Under the pieces are notes generated by a model that saw only the letters and a list, made by a program, of their open reading frames with translations, was not told where the DNA came from and ran no database searches. This document shows, piece after piece, positions 8,814-64,000 of a stretch of 64,000 nt of DNA (positions within the stretch are counted from its first letter, which is position 1; each line of letters opens with the position of its first letter). Both the position numbers and the translations under genes were made by a program. The DNA is from Cytophagaceae bacterium (GTDB taxonomy: Bacteria; Bacteroidota; Bacteroidia; Cytophagales; UBA9547), in contig JAIYAU010000018.1 of the NCBI GenBank assembly GCA_027488865.1, forward strand, positions 2,635-66,634, written 5' to 3'.

Positions 8814-10105
8814 ATGTACCTGACTGGATTTGTGATACCGCCTATATAATAGTGATAGTTCATTTTTTGGTTAATTGGTTGGTCGAGTATAAAAAAACTC
8901 TTTGGAAAATAGACTTTTGGCACGTTATTATCTTCATAAAGTTTGTTTTTCCAAGTATTCTTATGTATTATTTTAGTACTTCTATTAAGAACCTTTCACA
9001 TGTCGGAATAGCCCTACCTGCTATTATTGTAAATATAAATTTTATCTTCGTAATTTCTATCGTTGGTTACGTTAGTATCTATTTTGGAAGATTATTGTAT
9101 GACTCTTTAGGTCAGCCTAGTAAAAAATATACAATAGAGAATATTATTCAAAATAACGTTAATTCTGAAATTTCGATTAAATTCTTCTTTTACTTCTATT
9201 TGTTTCTAAGTAGTGTCGTAATATTTATTCAAGGTAGTCATGGATATATATTTAATGGACGAACTTTTTATCAATTTAACGATTCTTTACGCCCACTATA
9301 TAATTTAGCGGTAATTTTATATTTCAATATCTTTTTGATTTTATTTATTAAGTATCTTGAAACTAAAACTAAAGAAAACCTAATTAGGGTGATTTTAGTT
9401 TTTTGTACCGGCCTCTTTTTTGAATCAAGGGCTGCAATTTTAGAACCAATAATGTTTGCTATACTGTTTTATTCATTTTTAAATTTTAAGAAAGTTAAAT
9501 TCGTCAATATAATGTTTATTGCTGTGATACTAATGGTAATTGCAATTTTGATGTTATCTCTTAGATTTAAACAAGTAGATTATACTAATTGGTTAATAAT
9601 ATTAGAAGAAATTTTATATGGGGATAATTTTTCAGATTTGCGAGATTTTACTTGGTTTTATTCTAATTGGGATAAAAATTTTATTTATGGGAAAACATAT
9701 CTAGCTGGTATTATTTCATTTTTACCTAGATTTATAAGCAATTTTAGGCAAGAATGGGCAATAAGTGTTTATACAAATGGATACATGGGTTTTGACATTT
9801 CAATTCATCCTGGATTAAGAATTGGGTTGTTCGGGGAGTCTTATATTAATTTTGGATGGCTAGGTGTTATATTTCTAGGTGTTTTTTTTGGGTGGCTTGT
9901 TAGATTGGTAGATAAAGGTATAAAATTTGCTGTTTGTTCTGAGAATAATTTAGTAAATGCATATTCTAAACTAATTTGGTGGTATTTGATTTATGCATTT
10001 TGCATTAGTACTGGTTTTTCTGGCTTTTATAGTTTTATTTTAATTACAATTTTACTTTATACTTTTCGACAGGTGTTTTATAGTTTTTTTGTATTTAAGA
10101 ATTGA
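8810..10105 (+). CDS. Polytopic membrane protein, putative second oligosaccharide repeat-unit polymerase (Wzy-like)
   Basis: About 11-12 TM segments, aromatic-rich. ATGA start/stop overlap with the upstream gene suggests translational coupling. The call rests on context and topology only. Confidence 0.4.
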   Translation: MNVPDWICDTAYIIVIVHFLVNWLVEYKKTLWKIDFWHVIIFIKFVFPSILMYYFSTSIKNLSHVGIALPAIIVNINFIFVISIVGYVSIYFGRLLYDSLGQPSKKYTIENIIQNNVNSEISIKFFFYFYLFLSSVVIFIQGSHGYIFNGRTFYQFNDSLRPLYNLAVILYFNIFLILFIKYLETKTKENLIRVILVFCTGLFFESRAAILEPIMFAILFYSFLNFKKVKFVNIMFIAVILMVIAILMLSLRFKQVDYTNWLIILEEILYGDNFSDLRDFTWFYSNWDKNFIYGKTYLAGIISFLPRFISNFRQEWAISVYTNGYMGFDISIHPGLRIGLFGESYINFGWLGVIFLGVFFGWLVRLVDKGIKFAVCSENNLVNAYSKLIWWYLIYAFCISTGFSGFYSFILITILLYTFRQVFYSFFVFKN

Positions 10106-11648: not shown

Positions 11649-12659
11649 TTAAATAAAACTATTCAACGTCAACATAACTTCAGAAACCGAAATTTCTTTC
11701 ATACAATCATTTGAAGAACATTTTTCATATGCTTTTCCATCATAACAAGGCCTACAGCTTAGTGCTTGTCCGCCCCAAATAAATTTGGATTTAGGATGCA
11801 GACTTTTAAATGAATAGGGGCTTGTTGGTCCAAATAAACCTATGGAAGGAATATTAGCTAAGTCAGCAAGATGTAGTGGCCCACTATCATGAGTAATTAA
11901 TATATCTCCCTTGGATATTATTCTGATAGTATCTAATAGTTTGTATTTACCAATTAAATTATGCACGTTCAAATGGGCAAAATACTCTTCCACCCAATTA
12001 TCCAATGGCCCACCGATTATGGTAACAGTATGTCCGTCCAATATTAAATTTTGAGCTAAACTTACATAGTTTTCAATAGGCCATCTTCTTAAACTATCCT
12101 CACTAAGTAAATTCTTTGCTCCTCCCGGGGATAAAATGAATTTTTTTTTGTCAGGTTTTACAAATAGGTTTAGATTAGTTTCAATGTTGCTAATTTTTGG
12201 ATATTCTATATCATATTGATAAGGACCAGTATTCATCTCAAATGACCAAAGATAATCGTAAGTATGGTGGTGTTGAGGTATTGGCAATAGTCGTTGCTTT
12301 TTAAATCTATTAAAGCATCTAATTTCTTTAATTTTAACGGTGGACAGCAATAATTTATATTTGTTAGTGTAGTAGTAATAAAGACCTAAATCGTATCTAG
12401 TACCAAATAATTTTAAACAAGTTCTAAATATTTCGGTAATGACTTTCAGAATGTTATTACCTAAAAGTTTTGAATCATCAACTTCAATTATTTCATCAAT
12501 TTCTTTTATTTCTTGTAAAATAGGTGTCACTGTTTTGCCACACAACCAACTTATATGGGCATTCGGGTGTTTCTTTTTGATATGTGTTACCAATGGTAAA
12601 CACATTACCACATCACCTATTGCACCAATTTTAACAATTAATATTTTCATTTTAATCAA
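11649..12659 (-). CDS. Glycosyltransferase family 9 (LPS heptosyltransferase-like)
   Basis: N-terminal MKILIVKIGAIGDVVMCLPL, and HDSGPLHLA...GLFGPT near the C-terminus, are GT9 hallmarks. The gene starts 7 nt downstream of rlmB. Confidence 0.8.
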   Translation of the reverse strand: MIKMKILIVKIGAIGDVVMCLPLVTHIKKKHPNAHISWLCGKTVTPILQEIKEIDEIIEVDDSKLLGNNILKVITEIFRTCLKLFGTRYDLGLYYYYTNKYKLLLSTVKIKEIRCFNRFKKQRLLPIPQHHHTYDYLWSFEMNTGPYQYDIEYPKISNIETNLNLFVKPDKKKFILSPGGAKNLLSEDSLRRWPIENYVSLAQNLILDGHTVTIIGGPLDNWVEEYFAHLNVHNLIGKYKLLDTIRIISKGDILITHDSGPLHLADLANIPSIGLFGPTSPYSFKSLHPKSKFIWGGQALSCRPCYDGKAYEKCSSNDCMKEISVSEVMLTLNSFI

Positions 12660-12666
12660 ATTAACC

Positions 12667-13413
12667 TTATTTCATCCTCCCCCTTACCACCTCATAAATT
12701 ATAACGCCAGCAGCAACAGACACATTGAGCGACTCAATTTTGCCATACATTGGGATTTTAACTAAATGGTCACTTCGTTTTAGGTATTCTGGAGATACGC
12801 CGTCTTCTTCTGAGCCCATGATAATGGCTGTGGGTAAAGTATAGTCAGGACCATACAGCAAGTCATCTGTTTTTTCTGTACAAGCAATGATCTGTAGGCC
12901 GCTTTCTTTTAAGTATTCAATGGTCTTTTTTAGGTTATATTCTCTGCAAATTGGCAAATAACTAATTGCCCCTGCTGAGGTTTTCATGGCGTCACTATTG
13001 ATTTGAGCACCGCCTTTTTCTGGGATAATGATAGCATGTACTCCAGCACACTCTGCTGTGCGGCAAATAGCACCAAAATTTCTTACATCTGTTACCCTGT
13101 CTAATATGAGTAGGAGGGGAGTTTCACCTTTTTCGAAGGTATCGGCAATGATATTTTCAATAGAAGAAAATTGTACATAAGCAGCAAAGGCAATTACTCC
13201 TTGATGGTTTTTGCGTGTTATTCTATCTAACTTTTCTGGGGGATTGATACTAATAGTAACATTTAGCTCCTTGGCCAATTGTATAAGTTCAGGCAATTGT
13301 TGGTTGGTAAGGCCTTTTTGAACCAATATTTTGTCTATTTCTTTTCCAGAACGAAGTGCCTCTAATACGGGCCTAAATCCAAATAAAAAATCTTCTGTTT
13401 TTGTTTCCTTCAC
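12667..13413 (-). CDS. rlmB: 23S rRNA (guanosine-2'-O)-methyltransferase RlmB (SpoU/TrmH family)
   Basis: N-terminal substrate-binding domain (FGFRPVLEALRSGKEIDKILV). SPOUT motifs NFGAICRTAE, IIMGSEEDGV and ESLNVSVAAGVIIYE. Confidence 0.85.
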   Translation of the reverse strand: MKETKTEDFLFGFRPVLEALRSGKEIDKILVQKGLTNQQLPELIQLAKELNVTISINPPEKLDRITRKNHQGVIAFAAYVQFSSIENIIADTFEKGETPLLLILDRVTDVRNFGAICRTAECAGVHAIIIPEKGGAQINSDAMKTSAGAISYLPICREYNLKKTIEYLKESGLQIIACTEKTDDLLYGPDYTLPTAIIMGSEEDGVSPEYLKRSDHLVKIPMYGKIESLNVSVAAGVIIYEVVRGRMK

Positions 13414-47689: not shown

Positions 47690-49441
47690 ATGATTAAGTT
47701 GAGGGGAGCCGATTATATGGTTAAAATTATGGAGCTACTCGGTGTAAAAGAGCTTTTTGCTTATCCGGGCGGTGCTGTGATACCTTTTTATGATGCACTT
47801 GCATTTAGTAATATTGATTATATACTCGTAAGGCATGAGCAAGCTGCTGCGTTTGCCGCCAATGGCTATGGTCGCACCAAAATGACTCCAGGCTTTTGTT
47901 TGGCCACCTCAGGCCCAGGTGCCACCAACTTGGTTACAGGTATTGCCGACGCTTATGCCGACTCCGTACCTATGATTGCTATAACAGGACAAGTAAATTT
48001 ACCACTAATAGGTACCGACGCCTTTCAAGAAACTGATATTCAAGGGATTTGTCTTCCAATAACCAAAAAATGTTATTTTATTAAAAGGCTGGAAGATGCT
48101 GAATCTATATTTAGACATGCTTACGAAACAGCCATGAACGGTCGCCCAGGACCTGTTTTAATTGATATTCCAAGAAGTGTTCAACTTGAACATATTGAAC
48201 TAGATGAGGAATGGGAACAAAATTTTATACAACCTAAGCTGGAGAGGCTGTTTAATGTGAGTTCAAAGGATTTTCAGGCAGCTAAAGATTTAATTGCTTC
48301 CTCAAAAAAGCCTCTTATTATTGCAGGACATGGCAATTTATTGTCGGACAGCGTCGAGGAGATAAGGGCTTTTACACAAAGAGAACAAATACCTGCTGTA
48401 AGCACCATTTTGGGTATGGGCGTATTTGAAAGCACAGATCCATTATATTATTCTTGGTTGGGCATGCACGGCATGAAATACGCCAACCTTGCAGTGCAAG
48501 AAGCAGATTTGATTATAGCACTTGGAATTAGATTTGACGATAGAATCACAGGCAGGTTGAAAGATTTTGCACCAAATGCTAAAATACTTCATGTAGATAT
48601 AGATAAAAGTGAAGGTGGGAAAAATGTAAAAACTGAGGTTTTTTTACATGGAGATTTGAAAAGAGTGCTAAAAGATTTTCCTGATACTCGAAATGAGCAA
48701 AATAAGCAGGATAGAATGAATTGGCTTGGATATTTAAATGGCTTAAGGGAAGAATATCCCCTAAAAGAAGTTGATTATGATGTTTTTAACATGATGACGG
48801 CCATTGATGTTCTTGAAAAATTGTCTCCAGAAGATATTATAGTAACTACAGATGTTGGCCAGCATCAAATGTGGGCTGCTCAGTACATGGACAAAATGAA
48901 ACCCAATCATTTCCTTACATCAGGTGGACTGGGTTCTATGGGTTTTGGTTTTCCAGCGGCCATGGGTGCTCAAGCGGCTTTTCCTGATAAGCATGTATGG
49001 TGTATTACTGGCGACGGCTCGTTTCAAATGAATCTTCAAGAGTTGATTACCTGTGTGCAAGAAAATTGGCCAGTAAAAATATTATTACTTGACAATAATT
49101 ATTTGGGCATGGTAAGACAATGGCAAGAACAGTTTTATAAAAAGAACTATTCTGGTGTTGATATTCTTAATCCAGACTATATCAAATTGGCAGATGCTTA
49201 TGGGGTAGCCTCTGCAAGAGCTACTAACGTGGAAGAGCTTCGCGATGCCATTGAATTGGCTTATAAAACAGATGGTCCGTTTTTAGTGCATGCTAAAGTT
49301 CTTAAAGAAGACAATGTGTTGCCTATGGTAGCACCTGGTGCCAGCTTAAGCGAGACGATATACTATCCTATGGATTTAAAAAAGACAAAAAGTAACCTGA
49401 AACAAAAAAATGCAGAAAAATTATTGGCTGATAAGGTGTAA
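47690..49441 (+). CDS. ilvB: Acetolactate synthase (AHAS) large catalytic subunit, IlvG/IlvB type
   Basis: ThDP-enzyme three-domain layout, with the ThDP motif GDGSFQMNLQEL...NN and SGPGATNLVTGIADA. Confidence 0.93.
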   Translation: MIKLRGADYMVKIMELLGVKELFAYPGGAVIPFYDALAFSNIDYILVRHEQAAAFAANGYGRTKMTPGFCLATSGPGATNLVTGIADAYADSVPMIAITGQVNLPLIGTDAFQETDIQGICLPITKKCYFIKRLEDAESIFRHAYETAMNGRPGPVLIDIPRSVQLEHIELDEEWEQNFIQPKLERLFNVSSKDFQAAKDLIASSKKPLIIAGHGNLLSDSVEEIRAFTQREQIPAVSTILGMGVFESTDPLYYSWLGMHGMKYANLAVQEADLIIALGIRFDDRITGRLKDFAPNAKILHVDIDKSEGGKNVKTEVFLHGDLKRVLKDFPDTRNEQNKQDRMNWLGYLNGLREEYPLKEVDYDVFNMMTAIDVLEKLSPEDIIVTTDVGQHQMWAAQYMDKMKPNHFLTSGGLGSMGFGFPAAMGAQAAFPDKHVWCITGDGSFQMNLQELITCVQENWPVKILLLDNNYLGMVRQWQEQFYKKNYSGVDILNPDYIKLADAYGVASARATNVEELRDAIELAYKTDGPFLVHAKVLKEDNVLPMVAPGASLSETIYYPMDLKKTKSNLKQKNAEKLLADKV

Positions 49442-55157: not shown

Positions 55158-57245
55158 CTAAACCAAAACCAGCAATGGCGCAATGATCATGGCTACAATA
55201 CACACCAATTTAATTAAAATATTTAATGAAGGCCCTGAAGTATCTTTAAACGGATCGCCCACGGTGTCTCCCACAACTGCTGCTTTATGTGCATCAGACC
55301 CTTTGTAGTGTAATTTGCCATTAATTTCTACACCAGCTTCAAATATTTTTTTGGCATTATCCCAAGCTCCACCAGCATTAGATTGAAAAAATGCCATCAT
55401 AATACCTGAAACAAGCACACCTGCCAAAAAGCCTCCAAGGGCTTCTGCACCAAGTGAAAATCCTATCAAAACAGGAGTTACCAAGGCTAAAGACCCAGGC
55501 AATAACATGTGTTTAATGGCAGCCTTGGTTGATATTTGAATACATTTTTCATAATCAGCCTCGGCTGTGCCTTCTAAAATACCTTTTATTTCTCTAAATT
55601 GTCTTCGCACCTCTTCTACCATGGCATTGGCAGCATCACCGACAGCACGCATGGCAAAAGATGAGAATAAGAATGGTATCATGCCACCTAAAAGCAAACC
55701 TCCAAGCACTTTAGCATTCGCAATATCGATAGCTGCTAATTCCGTGGTTTTCATATAAGCTGAAAACATAGCCAAGGCAGTTAATGCTGCTGACGCTATT
55801 GCAAAACCTTTGCCAATGGCTGCGGTAGTATTACCCACAGAATCAAGAATATCCGTTTTTTCTCTAACTTCTTTAGGTAAATGGCTCATTTCAGCTATTC
55901 CACCAGCATTATCAGCTATAGGACCAAAAGCATCGATCGCCAACTGGATGCCTGTGGTGGCCATCATACCTGTAGCTGCCATTGCTACGCCATACAAGCC
56001 ACCTGTACTGAAAGCTAGGATAATCCCCACTGCTAAAATAATTACAGGTATCGCCGTTGACTGCATCCCTACACTCAAACCAGCTATAAGATTGGTTGCA
56101 GCCCCTGTTTGTGATTGGCGCGCTATAAATAACACGTGTTTTGAATTTTTCCCGGTATAAATTTCAATTACAAAACTGATTAAAATACCTACTATTAATC
56201 CTATTAAAACCGTAAAAAAGATATTAATTGATGGATAATCAATTGCATTGATGGTTATCGTTTTATCAAACAAATAATCAATTACAAAATAGGATGCGGC
56301 AGCAGTAAGTGCCACTGCACCAAAGTTGCCAATATTGAGAGAGGTAAGTGGATTCCCCTTTTCTTTAACCTTTACAAAAAATGAACCTACTATTGAAAAT
56401 ACCAACCCAATAGCTGCTATATAAATAGGTAAAATGATGGCAGGATTTACGTTGGCAACTTCTTTATTCATAGGAGCAACAGCCAATCCTAGCACCATGG
56501 TAGCCAATATGGTGCTTACATAAGAACCAAACAAATCTGCACCCATTCCAGCAACATCACCTACGTTATCACCAACATTATCAGCAATAGTGGCAGGATT
56601 TCTTGGATCATCTTCAGGTATTCCAGCTTCCACCTTACCCACAAGATCTGCCCCAACATCAGCCGCTTTGGTATAAATACCTCCACCAACTCTTGCAAAT
56701 AAAGCAATACTTTCAGCACCTAACGAAAATCCAATCATTACTTCAAGAATCCTATCTATTTCCCATTTGCCAAGTCCTAGTAATTCAGCATTAGAAAAAA
56801 TCAAAAAAAGAATGACGATTCCCAAAATACCTAAGGAAACGACGTTAATTCCCATAACCATTCCGCCAGAAAAAGAAACATCCAAGGCTTTGGATAAACT
56901 AGTTTTAGCAGCCTCTGTGGTACGCACATTAGCCTTAGTGGCTATTTTCATGCCTAGATAACCAGCTAAAGCAGAAAGACCCGCCCCAATTATAAATGCC
57001 ACGGCAATAAGCCAGTGCGAATTTTTGTCATCAGCCAGCACACCTACAATAATTGCCATAAAAAAAGCAAAAATCGCTAAGGCTCTATATTCAGCTTTTA
57101 AAAAGGCAATTGCCCCATCAGCAATATATTTTGCAATTTTTTTCATGGTTGCATCACCATCATTTTGCCTTGTTACCCAAATAGATTTGTAAAATGAGAA
57201 AGCCAAACCGCCCAAGGCAACCAATATTACAAGGTATAATTCCAT
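55158..57245 (-). CDS. hppA: Membrane-bound cation-translocating pyrophosphatase, K+-dependent subfamily
   Basis: About 16 TM segments. DNVGDNVGD motifs and [13 protein letters not shown], which has Ala rather than Lys at the K+-dependence determinant. Confidence 0.95.
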
Positions 57246-57516: not shown

Positions 57517-59265
57517 TTAATAAATAACTACTTTCTCAGTTTTGTTATTCAATTTGATGAAGTACATACCTTTTTCAAGACCTTCTACAGATACTTGAGT
57601 ATCTACACCAGCTCTTACCACTTTACCAGCAGCATTGAACAATGTAAATGCAGTACTAGACTCAGCGATAGTTAAAGAACCACCAGAGATCGGGTTAGGA
57701 TAAACCGATGAGTTAAGAACTGGAGTGATGATAGCGTCTTCAGAAGAAGTGATTGAAGATAATCTACCATCGAAAGAGGCACCAGATAGCGCTGGAGAGT
57801 TGGCTTTAGGTCTGTAATTTGGAGCAGTTGCATTATTAGGATCTGTCAAAACGTCTGCCGTTGTGAAAAGACCGTTTTTAATGCCAACTGTGTTATCATT
57901 TGCAGAACTTGTAATAAAGTTATTTGCATTTGTTAAATCTCCCGCTAAAGAAACTTCTACTAAACCATTTGAAGTTGAAGCTCCAGTAATTCCTTCGTAG
58001 GGATTCACGAACAAATTGTTTTTTACTTCTATTATCTCATTAGCAACAGCTTTAGTTCCTTTAACACCGGCATAAGCCAATACAGAATCACTTTCCAATC
58101 TTATTGCATTTTTGTAACCCATAAAAATGGAGTTATAAATACTTAGTTTAGTATTTCTTCTAATGAGCGCTCCTGTTCTAAATGCAGATTGTTGCGTATT
58201 GTTTAAAGAATCGTAAGTTTTACCGACCGGAATAGGACCAACACAAGTAATGTTACTAAAAATTGGTTTGGTGTAAGGTTTAGCACCTGTACCTTGACCA
58301 TCGTTATCAGATTCAAATGTGTTTGAACCGTTATTTGCACTTGATGAATATGTAACATCAAATAACCCTTTATCTCGAACCGCTATCCCAAATTGTACTA
58401 TCCCTGAAAAACCAAAATCTGTATCAAAATCGTCATCAGTAACCTTGTAAGAAATTAAATGTTTACAATTTACATTTCCTCCGAACCATTCAAATCCGTC
58501 ATCTGCACCATAAGATACTTGAACATAATCAATTGTGGTAGTATTGTTTACTGCACCCATAGTAAGAGAGTTAGTTTCTCTATCTGTATCTAAATCAGTA
58601 CCAGCAAATTCAATTCTAAGGTACTTTATAGATCCATTACTAAAAGTTTCATTATTACCACCAAAACGACCAAAGTTTTTTAAAATTGGTTTTCTATCAA
58701 ATCCTTCTAATTGAGGAAGACTTGGGGATATACTTCTGTTAGATCTACCTGGACCACAAATTAATACTCCTGACCAATCTTCTGGAGCTCTGTCACCAGG
58801 AGCTTTGTTAGAAGTCATTACTACTGGGCTAGTCTTTGTACCTTGAACATCAATCTTTCCAGTTGTAGTAACAAGAATCATAGCGTAATTATTAGCAGAT
58901 GGCTGTGATTCAGCTCTTATAACAGTACCAGCAGGTATAGTTAAAGTGGCTCCATCACTAACAATAATCATACCTTTAAGTAGATAAACAGAAGAAGATG
59001 ATAAGGTTAAATCTGTTTTTATTGTTTTTCTACCTATTGTATCCCCAGAAGCAACATTATCCATTGCGTTTAAAGTGCTATTATCTGTAGTAGCGTCATA
59101 GGCTTTAAATTTTGGATTAAATTCTGTCCAACCTGCTGTCCAATCTTGATCGATGTCAGAACTTAAAGCACCAACATATGTGGTTGGGGTTAAAAATTGC
59201 GCATTTACGCTAAAAGCACTTAGCATTGCTAGGCTTGTAACAATTTGTAAAAATCTTTTTTTCAT
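57517..59265 (-). CDS. Secreted protein with a T9SS C-terminal sorting domain, co-operonic with the TonB-dependent receptor
   Basis: The likely start is MKKRFLQIVTSLAMLSAFSVNAQ. The C-terminus VYPNPISGGSLTI...GMYFIKLNNKTEKVVIY is a T9SS CTD. The central region is beta-helix-like, with DDGFEWFGGNV. Confidence 0.65.
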   Translation of the reverse strand: MKKRFLQIVTSLAMLSAFSVNAQFLTPTTYVGALSSDIDQDWTAGWTEFNPKFKAYDATTDNSTLNAMDNVASGDTIGRKTIKTDLTLSSSSVYLLKGMIIVSDGATLTIPAGTVIRAESQPSANNYAMILVTTTGKIDVQGTKTSPVVMTSNKAPGDRAPEDWSGVLICGPGRSNRSISPSLPQLEGFDRKPILKNFGRFGGNNETFSNGSIKYLRIEFAGTDLDTDRETNSLTMGAVNNTTTIDYVQVSYGADDGFEWFGGNVNCKHLISYKVTDDDFDTDFGFSGIVQFGIAVRDKGLFDVTYSSSANNGSNTFESDNDGQGTGAKPYTKPIFSNITCVGPIPVGKTYDSLNNTQQSAFRTGALIRRNTKLSIYNSIFMGYKNAIRLESDSVLAYAGVKGTKAVANEIIEVKNNLFVNPYEGITGASTSNGLVEVSLAGDLTNANNFITSSANDNTVGIKNGLFTTADVLTDPNNATAPNYRPKANSPALSGASFDGRLSSITSSEDAIITPVLNSSVYPNPISGGSLTIAESSTAFTLFNAAGKVVRAGVDTQVSVEGLEKGMYFIKLNNKTEKVVIY

Positions 59266-59361
59266 TTTATTTAAGTTTAAAACCATTACAAATTTATTCT
59301 AATGGAAGTAATTAAATGTTACCTAAATGTTAACAAATAATGAATTAATCAACTTATAATC

Positions 59362-62172
59362 TTAGAAATTTAAACTAGCACTTAATGTTACGGTATATCC
59401 CATCTTAGTTTTAAACAACTTATTATCCGCATCATCCAATTTGTAATTTGTATTAACATCATTATATAATACTAGGTCTTGTCTTAGAATATCTCCCATT
59501 GTAGCCTTTAGATTTAATTTATTTATTTTTTTGGATAATTGAAAATCAATAACTGTTCTTGGGTTTTCCCATATATCAAATCCAAATGGTACAGCATTGC
59601 CTCCATCATCAAATACCCCACCAACAAAAACTATCCTTCTTCCCACTCTATTAAGTACAAGGCTAGATGACCAACCATTATCTATATTTTCATATTGTAA
59701 CCCCATGTTAACTACATATGGCGACTGCCCTTGAAGCGGTCTGTTTTTTGAGGATGTTGAACCTTCATTTAACTGAATTTCAGACTTGATAAGTGCTAAA
59801 TTCGAATATGCCGTAAGAGAATTAAATATTTTTGGAGCAAAAACTTTTCCAATAAATTCAAATGATTTTCTAAATTCCATTTCAATACCATAGATTTTAG
59901 CACTTTTTTCATTATTATAAACTACCGTTCGAACAGCTTGAACATTTAGGTCATAGCGCAATTCGATTGGATTTTGAACAATTTTATAAAATCCACCTAT
60001 AGATAAAATTTGGTTTGCAGAAGGATAATATTCAAATCTTGATTCAATATTATTTATAGAAGAACGTTTTAAGTTTACATTTCCCCTAATGTCCGAATTC
60101 ATATCAAAATTATAAAAACCAAAAGGAGATAGTTCTCTAAACTCTGGTCTATTAAGCGTTTTATATATTGCAAGTCTAAGGTTAGTCTTGTCATTTAGGC
60201 TGATCGTAGAATTTAATGAAGGTAAAACATCATTAACTACCTTAGCTTCTACTACATTAACTTCATTTCCCAAATCTTTACTTCTTACACCTTGAGAGAA
60301 ACTTTCGTACCTTATTCCATAGACAAGTCTTAACCAGTCTAATGGTTTTTGGTCTAATAAACCATAAAAGGAATTTAAGCTGGAATTTGCTTTATAGTTA
60401 TCAGAAAAAGTATTAGTACGTTCTATTAAAACTAATCCGGTATTGGCAGCTGATATGTTGTTTTCAGTTAAGTCTACATCGGGTGACTTAGTTTTTTCGA
60501 AATTAAAATTGTTAATCAAGTAAGTAAAGTTTCTAGAGGTAAAATCTCTCGATCTTCTTTGAACATAAAAACCAGCTTTAAATTCATTTTTAATACTTAG
60601 TACTTTAAATGGAACAGCCACATCTAGACTTGCGCTATTAATTTTTTCTGATAAATTAGAAAAGAATCTACCAGTTGAATTTGTAAACTGATCCCCGAAA
60701 CCCATAGAAGGAGCTCTGTTAGGATTTGATCCAGAATAAAGAGCAATTTTATAATCTGGAATTGTTCTTATAATATCACCATTGTTAAGTAGCCATGTAA
60801 TCTTAAACCAATTTTTACCAACTGAATGCTCACCACTTAATTGGGTTGAAAAAATTCTATTATATGTCATGATATCTGCAAATTGTTTACCATAAAAGTC
60901 AGAACTCGGGGTGTTAATTTTTCTAAGTGTTGTTGAAAAATCAGTATTGATGTTATACAAGTTTCGTAAACTAATAAGATTGGTTGGTGTTAACTTAAGA
61001 GAAATATTTACAATACCTCCATTGGATATATTTTGAGTGTGTCTTTTATCTTCATAATTCGCTATTAGAAAATTAGCATCTGTAGTATAATTTTTAACAT
61101 TAACATCTGTGGTTCTCATGGAATTAGAATAGTTATAACTAGCAATGATACCTAGATCTTTTTTAAATACTTTCATCGGAACACCAATGGTATAGGAGAA
61201 TCTTCCATTCAACAATGGTTTTCTATTTCTAATACTCCAATCATCGTTAAATAATTTACTATTTACTACCCTTTCATCTTTTGAAATGCTTGAGTTAGCA
61301 GACATATCTGCATTTATAACTGGAGAATCTCTTTTCCCATCGTCAATACCGAAAATATCCGTTGATGATCCTTTAAATGTATTAAAATCTTTAAATGTTG
61401 TTAAAGAATGGTATTGCCCACCAATACTTATTGATTGAGTTAATTTATCTGGTATTGATTTGGTGTGTATTTGAATAACACCTCCACCAAAATCTCCAGT
61501 AAGTTCTGGACTTCCAGCCTTGATAATTACAAGTTTATCTACAAGAGTTGCAGGTATTACATCAAACGAAAAAGCCTTTCTGTCACTTTCGGTGGAAGGA
61601 AGAGGAGCACCATTTAAATATCCAGCATTATATCTATCACTCATCCCTCTAATAATTGCGAATTTACCTTCTTGAATGGAAGCACCAGTAACCCTTTTTA
61701 GAATATCCGCGGTCGATCTGTCTGGAGTTTTTCTGATCAAATCAGCCGATACTCCATCAGACACCTGAGCCGAATTCTTTCTTTCTATAAGTAATGCATC
61801 GGTTGAAGCTTTATCAACAGTGTAAGTGATCACCACTTCTTCTAACTGAGTGCTTTCTTCCTGCATAGCAAAGTTTAAGTAGGTCACTTGCCCAGCTTTT
61901 ACTTCTACGCCTTGTATCTTTTCCGTTTTATAAGAAACATAGTTAAGAATCAAGGTATAAAATCCTGGATCAAGGCTTAATAAAAACTGCCCCTCAATAT
62001 CCGTGGCTGTTCCAATGTTCTGTCCTTCCACCTGTACCACGGCCCCGATGAGGTCTTCACCGTTGGCTTTGTCTATTAACTTACCAGACACCTTGCCTTT
62101 ACCCCCTTGTGCAAACACCTGAAATGAAAAAATGGCAATAATTAAAAATGTTAAATAGGAAAACTTCTTCAT
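59362..62172 (-). CDS. TonB-dependent outer-membrane receptor with an N-terminal carboxypeptidase-regulatory-like domain
   Basis: Signal peptide, then CarboxypepD_reg (GKVSGKLIDKANGEDLIGAVVQVEG...TDIEGQFLL), then plug and barrel. The terminal ...LSASLNF has the OMP C-terminal Phe. Confidence 0.9.
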   Translation of the reverse strand: MKKFSYLTFLIIAIFSFQVFAQGGKGKVSGKLIDKANGEDLIGAVVQVEGQNIGTATDIEGQFLLSLDPGFYTLILNYVSYKTEKIQGVEVKAGQVTYLNFAMQEESTQLEEVVITYTVDKASTDALLIERKNSAQVSDGVSADLIRKTPDRSTADILKRVTGASIQEGKFAIIRGMSDRYNAGYLNGAPLPSTESDRKAFSFDVIPATLVDKLVIIKAGSPELTGDFGGGVIQIHTKSIPDKLTQSISIGGQYHSLTTFKDFNTFKGSSTDIFGIDDGKRDSPVINADMSANSSISKDERVVNSKLFNDDWSIRNRKPLLNGRFSYTIGVPMKVFKKDLGIIASYNYSNSMRTTDVNVKNYTTDANFLIANYEDKRHTQNISNGGIVNISLKLTPTNLISLRNLYNINTDFSTTLRKINTPSSDFYGKQFADIMTYNRIFSTQLSGEHSVGKNWFKITWLLNNGDIIRTIPDYKIALYSGSNPNRAPSMGFGDQFTNSTGRFFSNLSEKINSASLDVAVPFKVLSIKNEFKAGFYVQRRSRDFTSRNFTYLINNFNFEKTKSPDVDLTENNISAANTGLVLIERTNTFSDNYKANSSLNSFYGLLDQKPLDWLRLVYGIRYESFSQGVRSKDLGNEVNVVEAKVVNDVLPSLNSTISLNDKTNLRLAIYKTLNRPEFRELSPFGFYNFDMNSDIRGNVNLKRSSINNIESRFEYYPSANQILSIGGFYKIVQNPIELRYDLNVQAVRTVVYNNEKSAKIYGIEMEFRKSFEFIGKVFAPKIFNSLTAYSNLALIKSEIQLNEGSTSSKNRPLQGQSPYVVNMGLQYENIDNGWSSSLVLNRVGRRIVFVGGVFDDGGNAVPFGFDIWENPRTVIDFQLSKKINKLNLKATMGDILRQDLVLYNDVNTNYKLDDADNKLFKTKMGYTVTLSASLNF

Positions 62173-62248
62173 AAAAAAGGATTTTAAGTATTTGAGTAAA
62201 AATACATTTGCAAAAATAAGCTGATTACTTTAGAACAGATTTACATAA

Positions 62249-62296
62249 ATGTTATGATATTGTTAATTATGTTAACTATATGTTATTGTAATGTTA
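62249..62296. promoter_or_regulatory. Helically phased TGTTA array, including the GTTAA-N5-TTAAC palindrome, upstream of the TonB-dependent receptor
   Basis: TGTTA starts at 62250, 62261, 62270, 62281 and 62292 (steps 11, 9, 11, 11), 78-124 nt upstream of the receptor ATG. Confidence 0.45.
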
Positions 62297-62324: not shown

Positions 62325-62768
62325 TTACATTATTTTAGGTGTCGAGGTGGTCACCAAATTGGAGGTGCCATGTGCAATGAGTTTTTGAGTGGCTTTGTTA
62401 TATAGTTTACAGGTTACATTCACGATATTTTTACCTTCTCTTGTTATCTCGCAGTGAGCTAGCACCACATCGCCTAACTGACCGCCAAATAAATAGTCAA
62501 TAGAAAGATTGATGGTAGACATAAAAAAATCACGGTCTAGCGTGAAAACAGTAGTACCCATGAGGTCGTCAATAATACAAGCGATGATTCCACCATGGAG
62601 CTTTCCCGCTGCGTTGGTCATCTCTTGCCTGACAGTATATTCTGCAATGATATGGCCTTTTTCAACCAAAGTAAAAATAGGACGAAGCCAGTTAGAAACA
62701 GCTGAAGGGCTGTTGGTGATTTCTTTACCCAGAAGCGTTTGTAATATTAGAACAGAATTATTTGACAT
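62325..62768 (-). CDS. PaaI-family hotdog-fold thioesterase
   Basis: 147 aa. NAAGKLHGGIIACIIDDLMG is the PaaI/4HBT-type motif. Confidence 0.8.
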   Translation of the reverse strand: MSNNSVLILQTLLGKEITNSPSAVSNWLRPIFTLVEKGHIIAEYTVRQEMTNAAGKLHGGIIACIIDDLMGTTVFTLDRDFFMSTINLSIDYLFGGQLGDVVLAHCEITREGKNIVNVTCKLYNKATQKLIAHGTSNLVTTSTPKIM

Positions 62769-62794: not shown

Positions 62795-64000
62795 TTATTC
62801 TTCAACCACCACCTGAATCATTTGTGCCTCCACCATAGATACTTGGATATTTCGGTTGTTTGCTTTAATCAGCACAAAATCTTCCGTTTTGTTCGTAATC
62901 CATATGGTAGTGTTGGGCAATAAACCAATTTGCCATAAAAAAGCTGCATTCCCTTGATTTTCCGCAATTCTACCTTTTCCGTTAATGGCAAGTTGGTTTA
63001 AAGTAATTTCTAATACCTTTTTTTGATTCAATTTAGGGATAGGCGAGCCGTGAGGATCAATTTCTGGATGCCCCAGTGCTTTGTCTACTTTTTCCCAAAA
63101 ATCTGCTTGAGCAATATGTTCCATTTTTTCTGCTGATTCATGCACTTTATCCGTGGGTATTCCCATTTTATTGGTCATGTAGGTTTCCCACAAGCGATGT
63201 GCCCTTAAAAGTTTTTTACCTAAATTTTTCCCAATATCTGTGACCGCATATTTTCGATTTTGGTGGTTAATCACATTTAATCTTTGAAGGTTCCATAAAT
63301 TAATTTTAAGGTATATGGTACCAAAATGTAGTTCGCTCCTAAGTTTAGTAAACGTTACACCCTCTTCTTGACTTAATTTTATAATGGTCTTTAAAACATC
63401 TTGTTGGTCAATGGTGAGATTTTTTTGTAATCGCTTGGCGTATTTCACAAGGAAGCCTCGTTTTGGGCTAAATAATAATGCTATCAAAAACAAAAAGGTA
63501 GCTGATAAGGTCATCATTGGCCCAGGTGTAAGTTCTGTTTTTATGGCCAAAGCCAATCCTGAACTAGCAGCAACCATGCCAATGGCTGCTGATATTAAAA
63601 CCATCGTTAATAACTTATTGGTGAGTAAATAAGCTGTGGAGGCGGGAATAATAAGCATGGCCACTACCAGTATAACTCCTACCGATTGTAAAGAAGCAAC
63701 AATGGTAAGTGATAACAAAAACATAAGGAAATAATGAATCAAAGCCACGGAGATTCCCATGGTGGCTGCAATAACCGGATCAAAAGTGGATATGAAAAAG
63801 TATTTAAAAAAAACGAATATAATCAATGCCACATAACAACCAATCATGGCAGTAAGCCAAAGATCATTATCAGAAACACCAAGTACGTTTCCAAATAAAA
63901 AATCTTTCATGTCCAAATGTATTCCCTGTTTTTTGGTAAGCCATGAAATACCAATAATGCCTAAAGCAAACATGGCTGTAAAAACTATTCCGATGGAAGC
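62795..64000 (-). CDS. Fusion protein: ABC-3 (Mn/Zn/Fe chelate) transporter permease + DtxR/MntR-type metalloregulator + FeoA/SH3-like domain; N-terminus lies beyond the window edge
   Basis: The frame is open to base 64000. The N-terminal part has about 5 TM segments of ABC-3 type. This is followed by a winged-helix region, RAHRLWETYM...KVHESAEKMEHI...GHPEIDPHGSPIP (DtxR metal-site and dimerisation pattern) and a C-terminal FeoA-like segment. Confidence 0.8.
   Translation of the reverse strand, partial: ASIGIVFTAMFALGIIGISWLTKKQGIHLDMKDFLFGNVLGVSDNDLWLTAMIGCYVALIIFVFFKYFFISTFDPVIAATMGISVALIHYFLMFLLSLTIVASLQSVGVILVVAMLIIPASTAYLLTNKLLTMVLISAAIGMVAASSGLALAIKTELTPGPMMTLSATFLFLIALLFSPKRGFLVKYAKRLQKNLTIDQQDVLKTIIKLSQEEGVTFTKLRSELHFGTIYLKINLWNLQRLNVINHQNRKYAVTDIGKNLGKKLLRAHRLWETYMTNKMGIPTDKVHESAEKMEHIAQADFWEKVDKALGHPEIDPHGSPIPKLNQKKVLEITLNQLAINGKGRIAENQGNAAFLWQIGLLPNTTIWITNKTEDFVLIKANNRNIQVSMVEAQMIQVVVEE

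Follow-up and report, generated by a model that had tools for sequence, protein, structure and literature searches.

The minus-strand gene at the end of the 64,000-nucleotide stretch of Cytophagaceae DNA analysed here (contig JAIYAU010000018.1; the whole stretch is called the window below) encodes an ATP-binding cassette (ABC) permease of the ABC-3 family that continues, in a single reading frame, into a DtxR-type metalloregulator module with a FeoA-like C-terminal domain. It is tentatively proposed that a DtxR/MntR repressor, once joined to the permease, was turned in Bacteroidota into a regulatory domain of the importer, which would not read DNA but would sense metal and shut the transporter, with transcriptional control exerted by a free paralogue. 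Judged from its sequence, the fused module seems to have all of the metal ligands, a dimerisation helix and a FeoA domain while lacking a conserved helix for reading DNA.

From base 64000 the minus-strand frame runs through 401 codons without a stop to a TAA at 62795-62797. The N-terminal 95 codons of the fusion lie outside the window; the full protein has 496 amino acids, and the database protein P0001 (496 amino acids) is 100% identical across all 401 residues of the window. Pfam assigned ABC-3 to residues 2-177 of the window fragment (E=1e-43) and Fe_dep_repr_C to residues 254-323 (E=2e-24), and the three-domain MntR model of NCBIfam covers residues 194-397 with E=4e-22, under the cut-off of that model. 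A first-pass annotation had read from the letters of the window the order of domains that results, in which an ABC-3 permease resembling PsaC leads into a winged helix of DtxR type, then a dimerisation and metal-binding core and last a FeoA/SH3-like domain; Pfam, AlphaFold2 and Foldseek between them bear this order out. The AlphaFold2 model of P0001 was built from 109 orthologues, which also form the conservation alignment used throughout (mean predicted local distance difference test score, pLDDT, 88.4; predicted template modelling score, pTM, 0.76); along the chain it shows a transmembrane (TM) bundle, helix 278-305, the winged helix, a helical core at 350-403 and a beta-rich C-terminal domain. 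The architecture recurs in more than 100 orthologues from Bacteroidota, the breadth that the annotation had wished to see surveyed. Homologues number more than 5000, and nearly all of the best 120 are fusions of approximately 490-500 amino acids, from independent assemblies, and the same single open reading frame (ORF) is encoded in 80 further metagenome loci. The annotation had named a stop or frameshift as the sign of an assembly artefact; an artefact was rejected, since the single ORF recurs in more than 100 independent assemblies. The architecture is neither rare nor new: permease-DtxR fusions occur in 11 phyla according to Thompson et al. 2012 (as given in PMC5599777), and the Joint Genome Institute already names such proteins 'permease subunit/Mn-dependent DtxR family transcriptional regulator'. 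Among the metagenome contigs no exact match was found to a 50-mer taken from the end of the window, and a search of the representative library with the C-terminal module returned fusions, fragments and free regulators mixed, with best matches at about 35% identity. A second class of fused permeases, of 414-428 amino acids, ends after the DtxR core and has no FeoA domain (L011:7001-8245, L012:7767-9032, P0028-P0039). Locus L050 seemingly holds two permease-type matches followed by a gene for a substrate-binding protein (SBP) joined to an ATPase, so that some genomes may hold two fused permeases.

The joint between permease and module comprises about 15 residues, predicted as part of a continuous helix that starts where the last TM helix emerges on the cytoplasmic side and passes directly into helix 1 of the module. 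No conserved linker motif specific to the fusion was found in the 109 orthologues, the PK that follows the last TM helix being present in unfused PsaC as well. Two residues on this helix, D296 and K299, are invariant, and D296 aligns with the helix-1 aspartate in the EDYLK motif of MtsR and SloR. The winged helix-turn-helix is formed in the model by helices 291-305, 312-319 and 323-335 and by a wing at 339-348; together with the core it was superposed by Foldseek on DR2539 of D. radiodurans (TM-score 0.87, root-mean-square deviation 1.5 Å), and about 210 columns aligned to full-length SloR, ScaR, IdeR and DtxR (E ~1e-9). The core scores 85.8 bits against PF02742 (cut-off 27) and supplies the candidate ligands H363, E367, H382, E386, E389, H390, D410 and H412, all of them invariant in the alignment except E386, which is conserved in at least 90% of the sequences. 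In a residue-by-residue alignment the ligand residues of the fused module, D296 included, match those of ScaR, SloR, MtsR and MntR. The position of DtxR Cys102 is occupied by a glutamate (AEKMEH), as the annotation had pointed out; in ScaR, SloR, MtsR and M. tuberculosis MntR the motif AEVLEH supplies the aligned Glu. The FeoA match of the window fragment stays under the cut-off of 23 (21.3 bits, E=2.9e-4) and is significant in many orthologues; the region is built of beta-strands in the AlphaFold2 model, with Q444 conserved in at least 90% of the sequences.

The DNA-reading part of the module is of a different character. PF01325, the DtxR N-terminal DNA-binding domain, has no match at E<=0.01 in either the window fragment or full-length P0001, and it is present in 1 of the best 120 homologues and in 1 of 10 distant fusions. 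The recognition helix (TIYLKINLWNLQR) is the least conserved stretch of the whole protein, with an entropy of 2.84 bits among fused proteins compared to 0.66 bits among free regulators. Mean pairwise identity across the winged helix-turn-helix is 0.30 in the fused and 0.66 in the free proteins, and across the core 0.61 and 0.81. As a control, one pair of organisms, L003-type and L006, was compared for both kinds of protein: the recognition helix is 40% identical between the fused copies and 100% between the free regulators, the winged helix-turn-helix 42% and 78%, and the core 70% and 82%. Since the organism pair is the same, the difference between fused and free proteins does not come from unequal divergence of the two sets.

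A candidate operator precedes these loci. The palindrome TTTTTAG-N6-CTAAAAA precedes the first gene by 51-83 bp in L001, L003-L005, L006, L010 and L012, and is found with one mismatch in L009 and L013; in L001 it is present twice, the other copy standing 22 bp further downstream. The survey was then extended to 70 further metagenome loci with upstream DNA (among L015-L092; 583 kb), searched to 220 bp from the first gene: the form TTTAG-N6-CTAAA was exact at 44 of the 70 and had one mismatch at 15 more, and at the 44 related loci the palindrome TTTAGACTAATCTAAA lies 17-191 bp upstream (median 60 bp). Exact matches number 47 in the entire 583 kb, 44 of them at the upstream position. Even the six inner bases, which were left free in the search, are conserved, with the consensus TTTAGACTA(A/G)TCTAAA. 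The fused protein could be extracted at 39 of the operator-bearing loci, and these carry 37 distinct fused recognition helices with a mean identity of 21%, as against 74% for the RxHRLWE dimerisation helix. That the operator stays constant while the fused helices vary speaks for a different, conserved protein as its reader, for which the free MntR-like regulator is the obvious candidate, as far as sequence comparison can tell. A scan of the window itself with up to one mismatch gave 13 matches for 9.6 expected, which is not above chance, and the sole exact match, at 49282, falls inside a coding region. Further palindromes in coding DNA of L003 (5018), L006 (6890) and L011 (704) were treated as chance occurrences; that of L003 is not conserved in the window.

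The free regulator is a protein of 220 amino acids with PF01325, PF02742 and FeoA, and in the nearest relatives, L003-L005 (85% identity) and L006 (59%), the gene order is free DtxR/MntR regulator, a 585-residue ZnuA/ABC_tran chain and the fusion gene. P0242, a free regulator with PF01325 that is 85% identical to the L003 regulator, and P0122, a counterpart of the 585-residue chain at 84%, appear to be encoded on the same contig as the window's fusion, and the genome of the window very probably has the same operon as L003-L006. The helix by which the free regulator would read DNA, NTKPASVSDMLKKLSQK, does not vary between the window's genome and the L003-type relatives, and in L006 one flanking residue differs. 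In a classification of 72 metagenome loci, 53 fusion genes are orphans, 18 follow an SBP-ATPase gene, and 1 locus begins with the regulator.

As for the transporter, the fusion is best explained as the permease of a TroA/PsaA-type (cluster A-I) ABC importer for Mn, Fe or Zn, the import activity being predicted by homology. PF00950 scores 150 bits on the window fragment and 244 bits at full length (cut-off 20.1), and the similarity is highest to PsaC (7KYP, E=8e-58; Foldseek E=2e-17) and lower to ZnuB (E=2e-25). In PsaC the channel metal is coordinated by Asp46 and His50, TM9 contributes to the interface of the permease dimer, and the protein was expressed as a C-terminal fusion with green fluorescent protein (PMC8346216), which fits a cytoplasmic C-terminus. 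D44 and H48 of P0001, beyond the window, align with Asp46 and His50 (GDALSHA and GDAISHA) and are invariant in the alignment. The partner, the ZnuA plus ABC_tran chain of 585 amino acids, begins with a signal-like N-terminal helix and a binding-protein domain, which a TM helix (306-327) joins to an ABC ATPase; it is found directly upstream of the fusion in L003-L006, L009, L012, L013 and about 18 metagenome loci, and more than 100 Bacteroidota orthologues exist. Such a fusion is topologically sensible, and the importer appears to be built of two kinds of chain, a 9-TM permease with the DtxR-like module and the 585-residue SBP-TM-ATPase. No description of a binding protein fused to an ABC ATPase via one TM helix was found in a literature search. 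The binding domain of the partner is nearest to PsaA, MntA and MntC (~5e-54), followed by YfeA, MtsA and TroA, whereas the best match named ZnuA reached 8e-38 and E. coli-type ZnuA proteins ~1e-13. Across the importer parts the ranking is Mn systems, then Fe/TroA systems, then Zn systems, and since no ZnuA-type preference is seen in it, a zinc-specific ZnuABC system was set aside as unlikely. At the metal-ligand positions, assigned after PsaA and TroA, the binding domain reads His-His-His-Asp, the pattern of TroA. All three metals, Mn, Fe and Zn, are candidates, Zn being the least likely. The annotation had drawn sensing of Mn rather than Fe from the glutamate in place of Cys102; Mn rather than Fe or Zn is plausible, in keeping with a permease and a binding protein nearest to PsaC and PsaA, though the binding-protein ligands follow the TroA pattern.

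We give an even chance to the division of labour that these observations suggest, namely that control of transcription falls to the free regulator while the fused module senses cytoplasmic metal and throttles its own transporter. The free MntR/DtxR-type repressor would bind TTTAGACTAATCTAAA in front of the operon and repress the locus when metal is sufficient, and the module would serve as a cytoplasmic metal sensor tied to the transporter. In DtxR-family proteins the metal bridges helix 1 and the core; along these lines, a rising level of cytoplasmic Mn, Fe or Zn may lead to a metal bridge between helix 1 (D296) and the core (E386, E389, H390). Movement of helix 1, or dimerisation of the module, could be transmitted to the channel by way of the last TM helix, which continues into helix 1 and lies at the interface of the permease dimer, and import would be slowed. 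The outcome would be a feedback 'trans-inhibition' that is faster than transcriptional repression.

Several observations speak against this proposal. The surface made of helix 2, helix 3 and the wing is more positive in the fused proteins (+3.4) than in free regulators (+1.5), and the winged helix remains well folded in the AlphaFold2 model, so that with its positive surface it would also suit DNA binding, possibly at lineage-specific sites; a few fusions (P0067, P0485) even keep the canonical helix. A free regulator is adjacent in 1 of the 72 metagenome loci and in the window's lineage, its presence elsewhere in the other genomes being assumed. Transport regulation by the module, and likewise the gating mechanism, are drawn by analogy, and a literature search gave no described case of a DtxR-like module that regulates transport in this way. 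Finally, the fused module of Chlamydia is released by cleavage and does act as a repressor (PMC5599777).

It is to the Chlamydia case that the first-pass annotation had turned, and YtgC-YtgR is indeed the closest characterised precedent. Transferred to Bacteroidota, the module would be cut from the permease, dimerise with metal and repress its own operon and perhaps other genes. Such a reading draws on a domain order equal to that of the sole characterised case, for which both cleavage and repression dependent on Fe were demonstrated, on a DNA-binding domain whose fold is intact in the model with high confidence, on the positive charge in the recognition-helix region, on the palindromic operator ahead of the gene or operon, and on the fact that an adjacent free regulator is missing at most related loci. 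It is, however, difficult to reconcile with an operator that stays nearly constant across dozens of lineages when the fused helices of 39 loci come in 37 versions, with a canonical regulator, its recognition helix identical across three genomes, that heads the operon in the nearest relatives and appears to be encoded on the window's contig, with the missing PF01325 signal, and with a linker of about 15 residues that is predicted to be a rigid helix without any conserved motif of its own. Given the variable recognition helix, the free canonical regulator and the constant operator, a released or tethered repressor of the YtgR type is not favoured, and we consider it unlikely. Alternatively, the membrane-bound module might form mixed dimers with the free MntR-like regulator via the RxHRLWE helix, by which the regulator would be held at the membrane or poisoned, and repression would report transporter abundance together with metal. 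Fused and free proteins carry nearly the same motifs (RAHRLWETY and RKHRLWEVF, DPHGSPIP and DPHGDPIP) and are apparently encoded in one operon in the window's lineage; yet most fusion genes do not lie beside a free regulator, and the two fused modules of a transporter would probably pair together, which makes this partnership rather improbable.

A role without regulation was considered as well: situated at the cytoplasmic exit of the channel, the module could take over the imported ion and act as a built-in chaperone or buffer. The invariant ligands would be suited to this, as would the start of the module about 15 residues past the last TM helix, a helix that in PsaC is part of the permease dimer interface. 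Nevertheless, the conservation of a whole three-domain switch including dimerisation helix and FeoA domain exceeds the needs of a binding site, and DtxR-type sites are sensing sites with an affinity tuned to the buffered metal level, not transfer sites; a hand-off of this kind is regarded as just as improbable as the mixed dimers. Least credence of all, close to none, is given to a functionless, decaying C-terminal remnant or to a frameshift or assembly error. The fast evolution of the winged helix and FeoA domains might point that way, but one ORF of approximately 490-500 amino acids is kept in more than 100 independent assemblies, 7 of the 8 proposed ligands are invariant and the eighth is conserved to at least 90%, the core is 61% identical on average, and the AlphaFold2 model is confident throughout. 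The sensor on the transporter, with a free regulator at the operator, is the reading preferred here. The positions of all features are compiled in Table 1.

Table 1. Positions of the fusion gene, its parts and its neighbours in the window, and of related elements at other loci
Feature	Position	Strand	Basis or remark
Permease-DtxR-FeoA fusion gene, 3' part (residues 96-496 and stop)	62795-64000	-	Open frame, P0001 match, Pfam
ABC-3 (PsaC/TroC/ZnuB-type) permease TM domain, residues 96-272	63470-64000	-	ABC-3, PsaC 7KYP, Foldseek
Continuous predicted helix, residues 278-305	63371-63454	-	AlphaFold2, pLDDT ~90
Winged helix-turn-helix, residues 291-356	63218-63415	-	AlphaFold2, Foldseek; fast-evolving, sequence not of PF01325 type
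Recognition helix, residues 323-335	63281-63319	-	Least conserved stretch
DtxR-type dimerisation/metal-binding core, residues 357-418	63032-63217	-	Fe_dep_repr_C, alignment
FeoA/SH3-like C-terminal domain, residues 428-496	62798-63004	-	Sub-threshold FeoA, model, Foldseek
Hotdog-fold (4HBT/PaaI-like) thioesterase gene	62325-62768	-	26 nt downstream of the fusion; 4HBT E=2e-10, TIGR00369 E=2e-10
Five TAACA(T) copies	62250-62296	-	Starts 62296, 62285, 62274, 62265, 62254; spacing 11, 11, 9, 11 nt
TonB-dependent receptor gene	59362-62172	-	Downstream of the thioesterase gene
Gene for 589-aa protein with type IX secretion system (T9SS) Por_Secre_tail sorting domain	57517-59286	-	Downstream of the receptor gene; no other Pfam match
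H+-pyrophosphatase gene	55158-57245	-	After the T9SS-tail gene
Palindrome TTTTTAG-N6-CTAAAAA	L001:7812-7831, L003:1065-1084, L006:6484-6503, L010:592-611, L012:5924-5943		
SBP-TM-ATPase genes	L003:1804-3561, L006:7193-8944, L009:5228-6997, L012:6001-7752, L013:6001-7758		Outside the window; probable counterpart in the window's genome P0122

Among the neighbours, the thioesterase gene is probably co-transcribed with the fusion; it stands at the same position in L003-L005, the relatives with 85% identity, and is absent from L001 and L006-L013. A connection of the fusion with the TonB-dependent receptor operon, to which the annotation had drawn attention, turned out to be one of position. Downstream of the thioesterase the 85% relative has a HipA toxin-antitoxin module and leuCD, and at the receptor promoter in the window no operator copy was found even with one mismatch allowed. 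The TAACA array, which does not match the DtxR-type operator, precedes a Bacteroidota-type -7 box (TATTTTTG, 62211-62218) located 46 nt before the start codon of the receptor. Because the gene order differs in the relative, the operator is missing at the promoter and the receptor has its own -7 box and TAACA array, the receptor is treated as an unrelated neighbour of the metal locus. A scan for sigma-70 promoters and terminators between 61900 and 63000, a method ill-suited to Bacteroidota promoters, gave nothing above shuffled controls. At L006 a YhcG/DUF1016 nuclease-like gene (8976-9980) is inserted between the SBP-ATPase gene and the fusion gene, and the latter is followed by genes for a QueD-like 6-pyruvoyl-tetrahydropterin synthase and for GTP cyclohydrolase I (11729-12788), both of which are metal-dependent enzymes. 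HipA-type toxin-antitoxin modules (HTH_3 and HipA_C) flank the metal-uptake operon at L003:5712-7311 and L006:12927-14446.

The architecture of a permease fused to a DtxR-type module is already known, from YtgCR of Chlamydia trachomatis (CT069, ytgABCD), which likewise has one ORF with an ABC-3 permease followed by a DtxR-like module, within a TroA-type importer locus for Mn, Fe or Zn. Compared by description, the systems differ in that YtgR is cleaved and was shown to repress, whereas the Bacteroidota fusion shows no constraint on its DNA-reading helix and appears to be accompanied in its genome by a separate canonical regulator, which heads the operon in close relatives; moreover, the fusion has an additional FeoA/SH3 domain, and the ytg locus has two permease genes (ytgC and ytgD), in contrast to a single permease gene and a fused SBP and ATPase in Bacteroidota. 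Treponema troABCDR and the streptococcal systems psaBCA/PsaR, sloABC/SloR and scaCBA/ScaR belong to the same transporter family (PsaC 8e-58, PsaA 5e-54), and their regulators to the same family of three-domain DtxR/MntR proteins with FeoA and a glutamate at the Cys102 position. Repression in the tro, psa, slo and sca systems proceeds via AT-rich palindromes. There, however, the regulator occurs only in free form and the four transporter parts are separate, whereas in Bacteroidota a second, divergent copy of the regulator sits on the permease. In the principle proposed, a cytoplasmic ligand domain borne by the transporter that slows import, the module may be likened to the C2 domain of MetNI, to ModBC and to MalK, whose trans-inhibition slows import as the substrate accumulates inside; these domains reside on the ATPase and are not derived from transcription factors, unlike the Bacteroidota module, a DtxR homologue on the permease. 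OpuA and GlnPQ resemble the partner chain in having a substrate-binding domain covalently tethered to the transporter, so that two binding domains are expected per complex, with the difference that theirs is on the permease and that of Bacteroidota on the ATPase through one TM helix.

The points that set the Bacteroidota system apart are its additional FeoA domain, a recognition helix free of constraint, a canonical paralogue that is apparently encoded with it, an operator that does not track the fused helix, and the SBP-TM-ATPase partner. No paper on any of these five points was found for Bacteroidota in a literature search, nor any Bacteroidota study of such a fusion, in line with the remark of the annotation that neither proteolytic release nor recruitment of DNA to the membrane is known to have been shown in this phylum; the importer layout of SBP-TM-ATPase plus permease-sensor was not found described either.

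Permease-repressor fusions are widespread, with the Chlamydia case alone studied, and the puzzle there is how a membrane-anchored repressor reaches DNA. Should the Bacteroidota module be released and bind DNA after all, it would be merely another member of the YtgCR type. In Bacteroidota, though, the puzzle may be wrongly posed, the fused copy keeping the metal switch and the free paralogue probably acting as the repressor. The operator TTTAGACTAATCTAAA is a candidate for marking a Mn/Fe regulon of Bacteroidota. If the proposal is true, a transcription factor has been re-used as the allosteric domain of a transporter, which would place a fast, post-translational control of uptake on top of the transcriptional one, and together with the SBP-TM-ATPase chain it would define a self-regulating metal importer made of two polypeptides.

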